From the NCBI GenBank assembly GCA_035281005.1, contig DATEEV010000153.1, positions 1 to 12,426 on the forward strand: DNA of 12,426 bases, read 5' to 3'. A model generated the notes under the pieces. That model was not told where the DNA came from, made no database searches, and worked only from the letters and a program-made list of their open reading frames with translations. Positions 3,705 through 10,555 of this stretch are shown here, piece after piece. This DNA is from Microthrixaceae bacterium (GTDB lineage: Bacteria > Actinomycetota > Acidimicrobiia > Acidimicrobiales > Microtrichaceae). How positions within the stretch are numbered: position 1 is the first letter of the stretch; every line of letters starts with the position of its first letter. Made by a program: the position numbers and the translations under genes.

Positions 3705-3784
3705 TCGCCCGCTCCATCTCAGCTCCCTCGGCGAACGTATCAGTGCAACGACAGACACACCTCATGACCACCACCGCACGGGCC

Positions 3785-4297
3785 TCAACGGATGAGGGCG
3801 CGCGTCAGTGGCGGGCCGGCCTCACCCATCCAGGCATCGATCAGCGCGTCGGGCGCGTCGATGTCGTCGCCGGCGATGTAGAGGCCCGGCGCCGGGAGGC
3901 TGGCGCCGATCTCGGCCAGCACGGGGGTGAGGTGCAGGTTGACCGCCAGCGAGTGGTGGTAGGAGCCGCCCGTCATCAACGCGACGGTGGGCAGGCCGTC
4001 CAGCTCACCGTGGCCGAACTGGTCGAGAAAGAGCTTCACCAGGCCGGTGAAGGACGCCTTGTACGTCGGGCTCGCGACGACCAGCGCCCGCGCCGCGAGC
4101 ACCGAGGCCTTGGCGTCGCGGACCTGATCGCTTCCCCACTCGAGCAGGGCCGGACCGAGCTCGGCCAGGTCGATGGTGTCGACCGAGACGTCCGTTCCGG
4201 CGATCCGCGCCAGGTGAGCGCCGACACGTTCGGCCACGGACCGCGTCCGCGAGGCCCGTTGCGGATTGCCCACGACCACGACGATCGATTCGCTCAC
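3785..4297 (-). CDS. NADPH-dependent FMN reductase family protein (SsuE/MsuE-like flavin reductase), about 170 aa, GTG start.
   Basis: The ORF 3785-4645 begins with translated repeat DNA. The protein-like part starts at GTG (4297), with GAGGGAG 5 nt upstream (VSESIVVVVGNPQRASRTRS...). Family motifs are LVVASPTYKASFTGLVKLFLD and a Gly-rich N-terminal loop. It is the right length for this family. Confidence 0.75.
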   Translation of the reverse strand: MSESIVVVVGNPQRASRTRSVAERVGAHLARIAGTDVSVDTIDLAELGPALLEWGSDQVRDAKASVLAARALVVASPTYKASFTGLVKLFLDQFGHGELDGLPTVALMTGGSYHHSLAVNLHLTPVLAEIGASLPAPGLYIAGDDIDAPDALIDAWMGEAGPPLTRALIR

Positions 4298-4301
4298 GGC
4301 A

Positions 4302-4371
4302 GCTCCCTCGGTGCTGGTCCCTCGAGGCAGGTCCCTCGAGGGAGGTCCCTCGATGCTCGTCCCTCGTCGGC
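4302..4371. repeat. Phased tandem repeat of 5 x 14 bp. The core TCCCTCG starts at 4304, 4318, 4332, 4346 and 4360 (units gcTCCCTCGgtgct / ggTCCCTCGaggca / ggTCCCTCGaggga / ggTCCCTCGatgct / cgTCCCTCGtcggc).
   Basis: Direct reading of the sequence shows an exact 14-nt period. On the minus strand each unit reads CGAGGGA, a Shine-Dalgarno-like sequence. Unit 1 is the functional SD of the FMN reductase GTG start. The array lies in the divergent intergenic region 4298-4432. Confidence 0.8.
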
Positions 4372-4432
4372 TGGTTGCTAGCACGTCGACCCGTACGCTC
4401 GGGGCCGACGGACCGAAACGGGAGGTCGCGCG

Positions 4433-4699
4433 ATGCCTCACAAGCTCGGACACACCTTCGACCATTTCGCCAGTCGAACGGCGCGGGTCGCGGGAAGCGC
4501 CTATGCCTTCCAGCACTCGTCGAACAAGGATTCCGAGGCCATCCAGGTGAAGCTCGACGAGATCATCGCGGCGACCAGGGGAGCCAGCAACCGGCTGATC
4601 GCGATCGAGCACCGCGAGGACGATGAGCTCGAGGCCCTCGAGCAACGGTTCGAGCGCCTCGCTCGGCGAGCCAAGCCGTGCCCCCGGAACGACGCATGA
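4433..4699 (+). CDS. Low-affinity iron permease (Fet4-like, PF04120)-related small protein that lacks the central transmembrane core. 88 aa; either a soluble remnant or an in-frame deletion derivative.
   Basis: The ATG at 4433 is preceded by GGGAGG (8 nt). The N-terminus FDHFASRTARVAGSAYAF matches the family N-terminal motif (FxRFAxxxAxxxGSxxAF). The C-terminus QHSSNKDSEAIQVKLDEIIAATRGASNRLIAIE...ELEALEQRFERLARRA matches the family C-terminal motif (QNxQNxDxxAIxLKLDELIRAxxxAxNxLxxLE..EELE). The roughly 45-aa, two-helix membrane segment normally between them is absent. The family assignment is from memory of the motif. Confidence 0.6.
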   Translation: MPHKLGHTFDHFASRTARVAGSAYAFQHSSNKDSEAIQVKLDEIIAATRGASNRLIAIEHREDDELEALEQRFERLARRAKPCPRNDA

Positions 4700-5619
4700 A
4701 CGCGGCGGGAGATCACCCCGACGAGCGCGTGGTCGAGGAGATCTACGAGGCGATGGCGAGTCGAGCCTTCGACCGGCTCTTCGAGCTCGTGCACGAGGAC
4801 GTGGTGATCACTCAGGACCCGGCACTGCCGTGGGGCGGCCGCTTCGAGGGCCACGACGGCCTGGCCACCTTCGCGCTGGGCCTCACCGGCACCATCGAGT
4901 CGCAGGTCACCACCCAGGCGATCGCCCGCGAGGGCCGCCCCGACGAACCAGGCGACGTCGTGCAATGCGGCCACACCCGGGGCACCGTCGTCGCGACCGG
5001 GGTCCCGTTCGACGTCGCCGAGATCCACCGTTGGACGATCCGCGACGGTCGCGCCGTCCGCGCCCACTTCACCATCGAGACGGCGGCCATGCTCACGGCG
5101 CTCGGCGCCGAGGCCGAGACCTGTCCCGTCTGCGGTTTCGTGTGGTCGGCGGTGGCCCGCGAGGAGGTGGGAGCGCGGGTCGTCGCAGCGACTCGAGCCG
5201 TCGCCGACGAGCTGCGTTCACACTCCGACGACGCCGTTGCGCGCCGACCGGAGCCAACCCGCTGGTCGGCGCTCGAGTACGCCGCCCACATGCGAGACGC
5301 GCTCTATCACCTTCGCGACCGCTTCGTCATCGGCCTGGCCGAGGACGCCGCCACCTTCAAGCCGCTCTACCGCGACCTGCGGGTCGAGCTGGGGCTCTAC
5401 CGCGATGATCGACGGGAGGTCGTCGCGACCGAGCTCGAGCTCGCCGCCGACCTGTTCGCGCGGACCTTCGCCGTCCTCGACGACGCCCAGCTCGCGCGCC
5501 CGATCCTGTACACATATCCGGCCGAACAGGTCCGCACGTTGTTATGGATGGGCCAGCACGTGGTGCACGAGCTGGAGCACCATCGCGGCGACGTCGAGGC
5601 CGGCCTTCGGGCCGGCTGA
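4696..5619 (+). CDS. Two-domain protein. N-terminal SnoaL/NTF2-like (ketosteroid-isomerase-like) domain fused to a C-terminal DinB_2/mycothiol-maleylpyruvate-isomerase-N-like metal-binding domain, with a CPVCG Cys pair and a HELEHH motif.
   Basis: ATG 4696 overlaps the upstream TGA (ATGA). An in-frame GTG at 4678 is an alternative start. The first half has the alternating beta-strand pattern typical of SnoaL-like proteins (VVEEIYEAM...VHEDVVITQDP...WTIRDGRAVRAHFTIE). The second half has a DinB-like four-helix pattern with conserved His residues (YAAHMRDALYHL; HVVHELEHHRGD). Confidence 0.7.
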   Translation: MNAAGDHPDERVVEEIYEAMASRAFDRLFELVHEDVVITQDPALPWGGRFEGHDGLATFALGLTGTIESQVTTQAIAREGRPDEPGDVVQCGHTRGTVVATGVPFDVAEIHRWTIRDGRAVRAHFTIETAAMLTALGAEAETCPVCGFVWSAVAREEVGARVVAATRAVADELRSHSDDAVARRPEPTRWSALEYAAHMRDALYHLRDRFVIGLAEDAATFKPLYRDLRVELGLYRDDRREVVATELELAADLFARTFAVLDDAQLARPILYTYPAEQVRTLLWMGQHVVHELEHHRGDVEAGLRAG

Positions 5620-5629
5620 AGCTCAGCCG
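5599..5629. terminator. Two stacked GC hairpins at the convergent junction of genes 4696-5619(+) and 5623-5931(-). GCCGGCC-ttcg-GGCCGGC (5599-5616, UUCG-type tetraloop) and CGGCTGA-agc-TCAGCCG (5613-5629), the latter containing both stop codons.
   Basis: The inverted repeats were read directly. There is no U-tract, which is common for actinobacterial I-shaped terminators. A candidate bidirectional terminator or mRNA 3'-end stabiliser. Confidence 0.3.
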
Positions 5630-5931
5630 AGGATCTTGGCCTTCTGGGCCGCGAACTCCTCGTCGGTGAGCACCCCTGCCGCGTGGAGCTCACCGAGCTT
5701 GGTGAGCTGGTCGAGCACGTCGTCGCCACCACCGCTCGGGGCGGGAGCGGGAACCGGCGCAGGCGCCTGCTGGGCCATGTCCTGGTAGTAGGCCTGGTTG
5801 CGGTTCGCCATCGTCTGGGCGTCCTGCTCGGCAAACTTGCCAGCCTGGCGGCGAGCCACCCGTCCGCTGACCGCAGTGGCGGTGCCGGCGATGACGGCCG
5901 TCCGGGCCATCCCTCGCATGAGTCCTGGCAT
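5623..5931 (-). CDS. SHOCT-domain protein (C-terminal DDVLDQLTKLGELHAAGVLTDEEFAAQKAKIL), with an Ala/Gly-rich N-terminus and a Pro/Ala linker.
   Basis: ATG at 5931 has GAGAGGA 10 nt upstream, overlapping the stop of the preceding gene. The SHOCT motif was recognised by eye. Confidence 0.75.
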   Translation of the reverse strand: MPGLMRGMARTAVIAGTATAVSGRVARRQAGKFAEQDAQTMANRNQAYYQDMAQQAPAPVPAPAPSGGGDDVLDQLTKLGELHAAGVLTDEEFAAQKAKILG

Positions 5932-5944
5932 GTGCTTCGTCCTC

Positions 5945-6388
5945 TCAGTTGTCGAGCGCTTCGAGCGCGTCGAGCGTATCCATGATGTCCTGCCCCGGGA
6001 TCCGCAGGCTCGCGACGAGTTGGCCGCCGGCCTTGCGCGCCCCGGCCACGAAGGGGATCGCCCATGCGTTCTCGTAGACGATCAGCACGGCGACCGTTCC
6101 CGGCGCGATGGCATCGGCTGCCTCGGTGAGCTCATCGTCGCCGAGCAGACCCGATCGCGCACCGGCGAATGCCGCGAAGCCACCGACGGAATCGGGCTCG
6201 AGGTCGGTGATGTCGACGCCCGAGAACGTGCCATCCTCGTCCTTGCGGATGATGAGGAGGTCGTACAGCCGGATCACCCCACGTTCGATCAGGTCGAGCA
6301 GCGCCTCGGCCGCGTCAGCGCCCTTGCCGTTGCCCGGGAACTCGATCAGCACGGCGTCGATCGGCCCGTGCACCTCGATGTCACTCAT
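5945..6388 (-). CDS. Conserved hypothetical protein, 147 aa, acidic, no TM. N-terminal motif is GPIDAVLIEFPGNGKG. It resembles the actinobacterial DUF6325-type family (identifier from memory, unverified).
   Basis: ATG at 6388 has AAGGGAAG upstream. It sits 13 nt from the downstream SHOCT gene and 28 nt after the lipoprotein gene. Its helical, acidic composition supports this over the antisense frame. Confidence 0.65.
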   Translation of the reverse strand: MSDIEVHGPIDAVLIEFPGNGKGADAAEALLDLIERGVIRLYDLLIIRKDEDGTFSGVDITDLEPDSVGGFAAFAGARSGLLGDDELTEAADAIAPGTVAVLIVYENAWAIPFVAGARKAGGQLVASLRIPGQDIMDTLDALEALDN

Positions 6389-6416
6389 CTTCTTCCCTTC
6401 ACAGTTGCCCGTCAGA

Positions 6417-6827
6417 TCAGTCGTCGCCCGTGGTGCAGTCTGCCAGGCCCTGGAGCAAACCGTCCCAGGCGGCCTGCGAAACCTCGTCGACGTCCTCGCG
6501 AATGCTCTGCGCGCTGCGCTGGAGCACCGCGACGTCCTGTTGTAGCAGTTCGTCGTTGCCCTGTACCGAGTGCTCGGCGTAGTCGGCGAGGTTGTTGTCG
6601 ATGTCAGCGCGATCCTCGGCAGTGAACATGGCGTACTTTCCGGCGAGGTCGTCGAGTTGCTCGTCGACGTCCTCGAGGGCCTCCTCGCGGTCCTCCGGCG
6701 ACTCGGCCTCGCGCACGTCGCAGAGCGCTTCGCCGAGTTTCTTGCCGTCGCGCTCTGCGCTGTACTTCTGGCTGCAGCCGCTCGCCACGAGCACCAAGGC
6801 CGCTGTGATCAACACGAGTCGCTTCAT
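6417..6827 (-). CDS. Small, very acidic predicted lipoprotein. Signal peptide MKRLVLITAALVLVASG|C with lipobox LVASGC; the mature form is helical, D/E-rich, with two further Cys.
   Basis: ATG at 6827 has GAGAGAGGAAAG upstream. Only 1 nt separates it from the hdeD-like stop (TGAcATG). Confidence 0.7.
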   Translation of the reverse strand: MKRLVLITAALVLVASGCSQKYSAERDGKKLGEALCDVREAESPEDREEALEDVDEQLDDLAGKYAMFTAEDRADIDNNLADYAEHSVQGNDELLQQDVAVLQRSAQSIREDVDEVSQAAWDGLLQGLADCTTGDD

Positions 6828-6828
6828 G

Positions 6829-7407
6829 TCACTTTCCTCTCTCGACGGAGTGCTGAACAGAACGCAGCTGGAACGCCGTCACGATCTCGGTGATGCCCCG
6901 CATCACGGCGCCGATCCCCACCCACAACACGAGGAGCCACGATGAGCGGCCCGGATAGCCGAGGGCCCAGAGGCCGATGGCGATCTGAGCGATCCCGGCC
7001 GCGAGCAGCAGGCCCCAGAGGTCGAGCTCGTGGCGCGCCGCGATACTGAAGATCACATCGAAGATCCCCTTGAAGAGGAGGTACCACCCGATGAGGAGCG
7101 CCAGGATTCCGAACGTCTGGAACGGGCTCAGGAGCGCCGCGATGCCGGCGACGAGGAACAGGATGCCGAGCAGCGCGTGAAGCCATCGCCAACCCTCGAG
7201 CATCGCCGTGACCATGAACTCGTTGATCCCGGCCGCGATCAGCACGAAGCCCAGCATGTAGCCGATCGTCGCGGCGGAGGTCGGGTCGAATCCCAGGACC
7301 AGGAACGAGATCACGATCCATGCGATCCCGGTGAGCAGGAACAGCCACCAGGCCGGCGAGGTGTCGCGTTCCGCCTCCCTGATGTCCGCGTCGGTGACAA
7401 CGCTCAT
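6829..7407 (-). CDS. hdeD: HdeD-family (DUF308) acid-resistance-type integral membrane protein, 192 aa, about 6 TM segments (WWLFLLTGIAWIVISFLVLGF...).
   Basis: ATG at 7407 has a strong AAGGAGGAAACG RBS. The hydrophobic periodicity and the N-terminal WWL motif are typical of HdeD/DUF308. It is the first gene of a four-gene minus-strand cluster. Confidence 0.85.
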   Translation of the reverse strand: MSVVTDADIREAERDTSPAWWLFLLTGIAWIVISFLVLGFDPTSAATIGYMLGFVLIAAGINEFMVTAMLEGWRWLHALLGILFLVAGIAALLSPFQTFGILALLIGWYLLFKGIFDVIFSIAARHELDLWGLLLAAGIAQIAIGLWALGYPGRSSWLLVLWVGIGAVMRGITEIVTAFQLRSVQHSVERGK

Positions 7408-8455: not shown

Positions 8456-10483
8456 CTAACCGTTCGGGCCCGGGATCGGCTCGTCGCCCGTGGGGTCGGA
8501 GTCGACAGCGTTCGCCTCGACGGGTTCGGTGCCACCGGGCTCGGCCCCACCGGCTGATGGGCCGTCGGACCCGTTGACACCGCCGTTGGAGAGGTTGCGC
8601 ATGAGCAACGCGCCGAGGCCACCGAGCACGCCGCCGTCGCCGCCGACCTGGATGTCGGGGACGATCTTCACGTTGCCGGCGCCGATCTCGCGCAGCGCCG
8701 CGACGAGCGCGGTCTGGTCCGAACCGATGGCCTCGCGCTGGGCGTCGAAGCCCTTCGCCCGGGCGAGGCCGAGGGCCTCCTCGGCCGAGGCGTTGGCGTT
8801 GCCGATGTCGCGGGTTCGCGAGGCTTCCGCCGCGCCGGTGACGGTGATGACCGCGGCCTCGCCGTCGGCACGGGCTCGGGCGGCCTCGGCGCGGGACTTC
8901 TCGATGTCGATCGAGACGTTCGCCTGGGCGAGCTGCGACTGCATGTCGGCCACGCCGCGCTGCTGCTCGAGGCTGACGCGGGCTTCCTGGGCCGAGCGCT
9001 GCTGGGCGAAGGTCGTCTTCTCCTGGGCCGCGATCTCACGGCTGGTCAGCACCTCGACGAGATCGACCGGGAACACCACGTCCTGGATGTACACACCGCG
9101 GGTCTCGACCTCGTAACGCGACAGGTACTGCTGGATGTAGCCCTCGGCCGCGTGCTGGACCTCGTCGCGCTTCTCGATGAACTCGGTCGCGCCGAGGGTC
9201 TGCAACTTGTTGCGGATGTAGTTGCCGACTGCCGACTGCAGCACCTCGTTGACGAGGTTCTGCATGGTGCCGACCATGCTGATGACCTTCGGGGCGCGGG
9301 TGTCGGGCACGTGGATCTGCACCTGCAGGTCGATGCTGAACGTGAACGCCTCCTTCGACTTGGCGTCGATCGGGGCGAGGCGCTCGTCGAGGCTGTGGGC
9401 CTCGCTCGTGGCATGCGACCAATTGAGGGTGAGGATCGAGGTCGGCACGATCTCGGCCTCGTAGATGCGCGGGTTGAGCGTGTACTTGCCGGTACGCAGC
9501 GGCTCGGACCAGATGCCCTGGTGGCCAGGTTTCACGATCGAGCCGAACTTGAACTCGGCGCCGGAGGTGTCCTCGGTGGGCAGGCCGACGTAGCTCTTGA
9601 TGACGGCCACCTCACCCTGGCGAACGACGAGCATCTCGCGCAGCTCGACCTTCACCAGGAACGGATTGAGCAGGTACGAGCCGTAGAGGAGGGGATCGTG
9701 CTGGAGGCCGATGCACCCGCCGTTCTCGAGGAACTTCTGGTAGTCCTGATAGTTGTCGTGCAGGTGGTTCTTCGACTTCAGGACCGCCTGGATCACCTGG
9801 CTGGCGGTGCCGGTCGCGCCCTCCATCTGGGTGACGTCGGTGAAGCCGCCGATGCGGCTGGCGATGTCGCCCGAGGGCGGGCCCTCGAGCGTGGTGACGA
9901 CGCCGACGAGGTCGCGGTCGCCCTGGGGTGTGATGTGGGTGACCATCAGCACCGACGGCTCGACCTGGCCGACGGCGGCGAGGGTGGTGTCGGAGATGAC
10001 CTTGCCGAAGACCTCGGCACTGGTGATGACGATGAAGCCGACCGGGTGGATCGGTGCGGTGGTGCCCGGCGGCAGGACGGGACGTTGGACGCCGCGCTGG
10101 CCGGCTTTGGAGAGGAACATTCGCAGATCGGCGAAGCTGCCGTAGTCGGGCAGGTACACGGCGGACTTGGCGCCCGTCGGGAGCGCCTCGCCGACCTGGG
10201 CGATGACGAGACCGATGTGGTCGGGCGGGACCTGGACCCAGGGGTATCGCTCGACCTTGAAGATCGGCCAGAGCTTGAAGCGCAGGCCGGGCATGAGCAG
10301 GTCGGCCTGGAAGCCGGCCTCGCCGTTCAACGCGACGAGCTGGTCGTCCTCGAGCTTGCGGCCGATCCGCTTGGTGACCAGACCGACCTGCGCCGGTCCC
10401 ACCGAGTGGAAGCTGTTGATCACCGGCAGGAGGATGAAGATGAACACCGCCACTGCGATGATCACCACGAGGAACACTCCCAT
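8456..10483 (-). CDS. Flotillin-family SPFH/band-7 membrane protein. It has an N-terminal TM helix, an SPFH domain, a long Ala/Glu/Gln/Arg-rich coiled-coil 'flotillin' region, and a C-terminal Gly/Pro/Asp-rich low-complexity tail.
   Basis: The ORF is open to 10528. The likely start is ATG 10483 (MGVFLVVIIAVAVFIFILLP...), with GAGAGG upstream. ATGs at 10528 and 10513 are alternatives. The SPFH core and EA-rich repeats (AQEKTTFAQQRSAQEARVSLEQQRGVADMQSQLAQANVSIDIEKSRAEAARARADGEAA) are characteristic. The 678-aa antisense ORF 9152-11188 is a shadow. Confidence 0.85.
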   Translation of the reverse strand: MGVFLVVIIAVAVFIFILLPVINSFHSVGPAQVGLVTKRIGRKLEDDQLVALNGEAGFQADLLMPGLRFKLWPIFKVERYPWVQVPPDHIGLVIAQVGEALPTGAKSAVYLPDYGSFADLRMFLSKAGQRGVQRPVLPPGTTAPIHPVGFIVITSAEVFGKVISDTTLAAVGQVEPSVLMVTHITPQGDRDLVGVVTTLEGPPSGDIASRIGGFTDVTQMEGATGTASQVIQAVLKSKNHLHDNYQDYQKFLENGGCIGLQHDPLLYGSYLLNPFLVKVELREMLVVRQGEVAVIKSYVGLPTEDTSGAEFKFGSIVKPGHQGIWSEPLRTGKYTLNPRIYEAEIVPTSILTLNWSHATSEAHSLDERLAPIDAKSKEAFTFSIDLQVQIHVPDTRAPKVISMVGTMQNLVNEVLQSAVGNYIRNKLQTLGATEFIEKRDEVQHAAEGYIQQYLSRYEVETRGVYIQDVVFPVDLVEVLTSREIAAQEKTTFAQQRSAQEARVSLEQQRGVADMQSQLAQANVSIDIEKSRAEAARARADGEAAVITVTGAAEASRTRDIGNANASAEEALGLARAKGFDAQREAIGSDQTALVAALREIGAGNVKIVPDIQVGGDGGVLGGLGALLMRNLSNGGVNGSDGPSAGGAEPGGTEPVEANAVDSDPTGDEPIPGPNG

Positions 10484-10555
10484 GAGCCCTGCCTCTCGCG
10501 GGCCGCACCCCATGCAGCCCTTCGTCACTGCCGAGGCTACGGCGGTGGAGCCGAT

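Follow-up and report, generated by a model that had tools for sequence, protein, structure and literature searches.

What kind of gene is an iron permease homologue whose product has no membrane helix, and how did it come to lie where it does? The question is raised by an 88-residue open reading frame, labelled 'low affinity iron permease family protein' in the NCBI annotation (HKY14482.1), in DNA from a Microthrixaceae bacterium. The whole stretch of DNA that was analysed, 12,426 nucleotides long and a complete contig of an NCBI third-party MAG, is called the window. A sequence-only reading of it had placed the frame at 4433-4699, with a good ribosome-binding site and an ATGA overlap with the next gene, and all of this was confirmed from the sequence. 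The features needed to follow the argument are these.

4421..4425, plus strand: GGAGG ribosome-binding site, 7 nt 5' of the ATG of the 88-residue frame, as read from the sequence
4433..4699, plus strand: 88-residue open reading frame with ATG start, a PF04120 derivative without transmembrane helices
4439..4510, plus strand: residues 3-26, N-terminal cytoplasmic segment (F-D-x-F-A...G-S-x-x-A-F), positions 8-31 of our own family HMM
4510..4511, plus strand: deletion junction F26/Q27, where 42 residues (126 bp: TM1, loop and TM2) are gone
4511..4681, plus strand: residues 27-83, conserved cytoplasmic C-terminal helical region (Q-x-x-x-N-K-D...KLDEII...ASNRL...)
4696..4699, plus strand: ATGA, in which the stop of the 88-residue frame overlaps the ATG of the downstream SnoaL_2-DinB_2 gene
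4696..5619, plus strand: SnoaL_2-DinB_2 fusion, a product of 307 aa when read from ATG 4696

The GC content of the frame by codon position (0.66/0.45/0.83) shows the coding pattern that the adjacent genes have as well; the window as a whole has 69% GC. A scan of 4200-4800 with Rfam gave no matches. A sigma-70 promoter and terminator scan of 4100-5800 detected none, a result which is uninformative at 69% GC.

Two conserved ends and a missing hairpin

The name of the family, 'low affinity iron permease' (PF04120, Iron_permease), is taken from yeast Fet4. The small bacterial members are about 120-200 aa long and have two transmembrane helices. Our literature search found no experimental study of the bacterial PF04120 proteins. 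No solved structure emerged either when the family profile was run against the PDB sequences; the top match (E = 0.021) is coiled-coil-like and due to chance.

It had been claimed from the sequence that the 88-residue protein keeps both conserved ends of this family, and this was borne out. Residues 27-82 match positions 61-116 of the 128 positions of the Pfam model with 57.8 bits (E = 1.3e-15), against a gathering cut-off of 25 bits; no NCBIfam model matches the protein. The local alignment made by Pfam stops short of the N-terminus, and a family HMM was built from 85 full-length relatives found in an exhaustive search. With this HMM the C-terminal part (residues 27-83) aligns to positions 74-130 with 79 bits. 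Taken by itself, the stretch of the first 26 residues has a score of 12.7 bits, which was reached by none of 2000 shuffled sequences, the highest of which had 3.7 bits. The pattern FDHFAS..AR..GS..AF is common to the 88-residue protein and the full-length relative P0012, and more generally the family and the 88-residue protein share F-D-x-F-A...G-S-x-x-A-F at one end and Q-x-x-Q-N-K/R-D...KLDE-I/L-I...A-x-N-x-L... at the other. In an alignment which includes the 88-residue protein (A1) all 13 invariant columns lie in the C-terminal region, from Q27 to E59.

What differs from the small bacterial members is the 42-residue hairpin between these ends. Positions 32-73 of our HMM, that is TM1, the FSDTWQL loop and TM2 up to MVFLI, are skipped in frame, and alignments A1 and A4 place an identical 42-residue gap in the protein. 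The HMM search and the alignment to full-length homologues, which the sequence-only reading had put forward as a check, thus give a PF04120 match and fix the bounds of the deletion. The further claim that the two-helix segment is precisely missing with the frame preserved holds, with the junction at F26/Q27. The highest Kyte-Doolittle hydropathy over 19 residues is 0.42, compared with at least 2.0 in the full-length relatives. The protein therefore has a Pfam score above the cut-off and the N-terminal cytoplasmic segment which precedes TM1 in PF04120, and it lacks the two transmembrane helices of the family (TM1, the FSDTWQL loop and TM2 ending in MVFLIQ). Measured against its functional homologues it has, like a gene remnant, lost an essential part, the transmembrane hairpin, in frame.

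The 88-residue product is without a membrane anchor. Since it has no membrane helices, it would be incapable of acting as a permease or of any other transport role, and because the defining membrane core of the family is absent it is not to be counted among the functional members of PF04120.

A single protein among many relatives

A phmmer search against 1.84 billion cluster representatives (E <= 1e-3) returned 1794 relatives of the 88-residue protein. For 159 retrieved proteins, which include the best 150 of the 1794 relatives, we scored how far each covers the N-terminus, the core and the C-terminus of the HMM. Among these best 150 only the protein of the window itself (P0001) has the N-terminus and the C-terminus without the core, and it is the one member of its cluster at 90% identity. 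The closest full-length relatives are 46-58% identical to it over the retained part. A metagenome scan with the 88-residue protein found no relatives.

The exhaustive search also gave many matches of 66-100 aa, and at first sight these might speak for a distinct, naturally soluble family of small proteins related to the C-terminal domain of PF04120. The short matches that were inspected tell against such a family. They start inside TM2 (MVFLIQ...) or have unrelated, out-of-frame N-termini typical of frame-shifted gene calls, and none of them joins the N-terminal motif to the C-terminal domain without the core. The best match of all, P0011, is instructive. It was called as a protein of 91 aa (58% identity) and is in fact a PF04120 gene of full length, at 4810-5276 of the 484-kb contig L019, in which two frameshifts, probably sequencing errors, spread the coding sequence over three frames. 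On inspection of the short matches the idea of a distinct soluble family was rejected; it is largely refuted, and we give it hardly any credence. That the protein is a deletion derivative and not one of a widespread soluble family, as had been proposed, agrees with its being the sole core-less architecture among the best 150 of 1794 relatives.

Smaller losses are seen in other sequences. P0018, P0095 and P0122 have, like the protein of the window, the ends of the family and an internal in-frame loss within the transmembrane core, of 32, 26 and 29 aa, respectively, and each is a one-member cluster from public metagenomes. P0018 and P0095 keep one hydrophobic helix and P0122 an intact TM2, whereas the protein of the window alone has lost the whole hairpin. 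From these sequences PF04120 appears to hold no soluble subfamily, just sporadic deletion variants.

That the other sporadic core-deleted members are metagenome singletons too, and that the sources here are short-read metagenome assemblies (k141 contigs), raises the suspicion of an assembly or binning artefact, for example a collapsed or chimeric join which mimics a deletion of 126 bp. The suspicion can be met with a second contig. In the ENA contig L001, of 23.6 kb, the 88-residue frame and the whole 431-bp segment around it, described below, are found unchanged. The two contigs differ at 34 of 8014 shared positions, many of the differences being synonymous changes in the neighbouring genes. 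Moreover, the join is in frame and no repeat lies across the junction. An assembly artefact behind the deletion is unlikely because two strain-level assemblies, 34 differences apart, share it, and we regard such a join as very improbable. Within the shared 8 kb the 34 differences leave one stretch of 1.1 kb, 3784-4879, with none at all, where about 4-5 would be expected.

The locus in relatives

The frame lies in a segment which is itself peculiar to this lineage.

3785..4297, minus strand: NAD(P)H-dependent FMN reductase, 170 aa, the divergent upstream gene
4298..4728, no strand assigned: lineage-specific segment of 431 bp, where the close relative L023 has 106 unrelated bp instead
4298..4366, no strand assigned: 4.9 tandem copies of the 14-bp unit GGCAGGTCCCTCGA (palindromic core TCCCTCGAGGGA), in the region between the divergent genes

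The comparison rests on L023, a short contig which shares its ENA sample with L001 and is the third sequence in the 90% cluster of the SnoaL-DinB protein. Its bases 1-371 align to 3927-4297 of the window, within the FMN reductase gene, with 91.9% nucleotide identity, and its bases 478-1584 align to 4729-5799 with 87.5% identity. Between these flanks L023 has 106 bases which show no similarity above shuffled controls to the 431 bases of the window and no trace of a PF04120 gene. The segment of the window holds the tandem repeat, the 88-residue frame and a new N-terminus of the downstream gene.

The same picture emerges further away. Six loci with orthologues of the SnoaL-DinB fusion (60-67% amino acid identity) have no PF04120 gene in the upstream gap; in all six a divergent minus-strand gene lies upstream and the gap is at most about 100 bases, the called genes at P0169 even overlapping by 2 bases. 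In the 41 loci which hold SnoaL-DinB relatives (L002-L018, L021-L044), tblastn with full-length proteins of the family detected no PF04120 sequence. Genome and metagenome scans with the SnoaL-DinB protein gave distant loci only, none with a PF04120 gene.

These results bear on the question whether the window shows a resident, vertically inherited full-length gene in decay, of which L023 would have lost everything and the lineage of the window only the core. The sequence-only reading had named a pseudogene in the making as one possibility, and had suggested looking for the full-length membrane form at the orthologous loci of relatives. None was found there, the spacer of L023 being 106 unrelated bases, and with L023 and the six orthologous loci free of a PF04120 gene the claim is left unsupported. 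It is true that P0018, P0095 and P0122 show that in-frame core deletions arise, or at least that they assemble. In none of the sampled relatives, however, is this locus occupied by a PF04120 gene, and the spacer of L023 is without a trace of one. The N-terminus of the SnoaL-DinB protein in L023 is furthermore like that of the outgroups, a state which is unlikely to have been restored by a clean deletion of the neighbouring gene. We therefore hold decay in place to be improbable.

The same N-terminus suggests the direction of the change. In L023 it reads MPTEDVAVVEE... and resembles the outgroups; in the window it is longer and atypical (MNAAGDHPDERVVEE...). Because of this difference it is most parsimonious to regard the lineage of the window as carrying the derived state, a polarity drawn from one directly comparable relative (L023) and outgroups with a different upstream gene. 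With this polarity the event is later than the split from the nearest sampled relative, at about 10% nucleotide divergence, and earlier than the split at 0.4% between the two strains.

As to how the segment arrived, a repeat analysis around the 431 bp showed none of the marks of a mobile element, neither terminal inverted repeats nor target-site duplications. No microhomology at the deletion junction was shown, the closest full-length genes (L019, L020) being too diverged at the DNA level. L023 does not have the 14-bp tandem repeat, which may serve as an array of operators or may have arisen as a side product when the region was rearranged. A degenerate fifth copy of the repeat, at 4420-4436 (15 of 17 bases), coincides with the ribosome-binding site and the ATG of the 88-residue frame.

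Some observations on the surrounding genes may be added. The start of the downstream gene differs between sources: NCBI places it at GTG 4678, for a product of 313 aa, and the gene call of ENA at ATG 4696, for one of 307 aa. With either start the N-terminus is longer than in the relatives (M..D/E-V-x-V-V-E) and does not resemble theirs, which fits a remodelled 5' end. The SnoaL_2-DinB_2 fusion, with a CPVCGF motif between its domains, is kept in 15 full-length metagenome proteins (56-67% identity) named 'ketosteroid isomerase-like'. Downstream of it, on the minus strand at 5623-7407, follows a block of SHOCT, DUF6325, a lipoprotein-like protein of 136 aa and DUF308; the order SHOCT, DUF6325, unnamed gene, DUF308 is shared by the contig of one SnoaL-DinB orthologue (67% identity). 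Still further on, at 8456-10528 of the minus strand, lies a frame of 690 aa; a membrane segment stands at its N-terminus, and its C-terminal half is long, charged and coiled-coil-like. The best relative of the FMN reductase is 68% identical; one relative of it was inspected, and its place in a TauD/ABC sulfonate operon tells nothing about the locus.

Origin, selection and possible function

Our preferred interpretation is that the 88-residue frame is a young, lineage-specific remnant of a PF04120 gene, in a segment which replaced the spacer, and that it most likely has no function of its own; we consider this interpretation as a whole to be probable. The 431-bp segment would have replaced an ancestral spacer of about 106 bp between the FMN reductase and SnoaL-DinB genes, and would have brought with it the 14-bp repeat, the core-less frame and a new downstream start which overlaps that frame. 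With the 42-residue transmembrane hairpin removed in frame, the N-terminal helix is joined directly to the C-terminal helical region. Such a deletion would let the ribosomes run on to a stop which overlaps the new downstream start, and the frame may still be intact because the event is recent.

The state of the frame has to be read with this youth in mind. No decay is seen in it: the frame is intact, the residues invariant in A1 are kept and the two strains do not differ by a single SNP within it, so that this pair of strains carries no information on selection. In a leave-one-out scoring with the HMM the retained N-terminal segment ranks at the 81st percentile of the full-length members and the C-terminal one at the 88th, percentiles biased upward by a set chosen for its similarity to the query. 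Intactness is no proof of selection since the event is too young, falling after the split at about 10% nucleotide divergence; the intact frame, the GC3 of 0.83 and the absence of SNPs fit either youth or selection.

The frame may simply be tolerated, or it may be kept as a translationally coupled leader. A role as leader is possible because its stop overlaps the downstream start and because neither of the two proposed starts, ATG 4696 or GTG 4678, is preceded by a ribosome-binding site of the GGAGG type (as far as can be read from the sequence). The frame overlaps the downstream gene under either start, the GTG 4678 of NCBI included. This resembles the translationally coupled frames of bacterial operons with an ATGA, in which stop and start likewise overlap and the downstream gene would be without a strong ribosome-binding site. 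It differs from the typical case in that the 88-residue frame is a gene remnant in a new segment and in that the coupling is putative, with an alternative GTG start.

A functional role for the product deserves to be weighed against this. The protein could be a soluble micro-protein which binds or regulates a full-length PF04120 paralogue, for instance by joining the oligomer of the paralogue through its conserved C-terminal helices, or which acts together with the co-translated SnoaL-DinB protein. An intact frame with a good ribosome-binding site, conserved residues with scores at or above those typical of the family and the overlap with the downstream gene are what one would expect of it. With the whole hairpin lost both parts would, judging from the two-helix topology, lie on the same, cytoplasmic side. 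Three helices are predicted in its secondary structure, albeit from a structure model of low confidence made from a shallow alignment (pLDDT 55.8, pTM 0.24); the model of the full-length relative P0002 is of low confidence as well (pLDDT 59.7, shallow alignment). On the other hand, besides the weakness of the model, the protein is a singleton conserved in two near-identical strains only, it has no known partner, the close relative L023 manages without the frame, and the youth of the event deprives its intactness of value as a signal of selection. Taken together a functional micro-protein of this kind seems unlikely. The further proposition that the joined cytoplasmic ends have been kept, either as a soluble micro-protein (a dominant-negative or regulatory partner of PF04120) or as a required coupling leader, is in our opinion rather improbable, and a newly born soluble micro-protein as such lies somewhere between improbable and unlikely. 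A young remnant is the interpretation we retain, with a product most probably without any function of its own.

The 88-residue frame is a real and correctly described singleton, and its chief use is as an annotation caveat. The public label 'permease' is misleading for a protein without a membrane segment, and HKY14482.1 should be excluded from inventories of metal transporters. The locus also offers a small and clean example of a remodelled intergenic region which has gained a translatable gene fragment, putatively coupled to the gene that follows. Were the product expressed and functional, it would show a route from a membrane protein to a soluble micro-protein, and the birth of such a protein from the gene of a membrane protein would here have been caught in the act.
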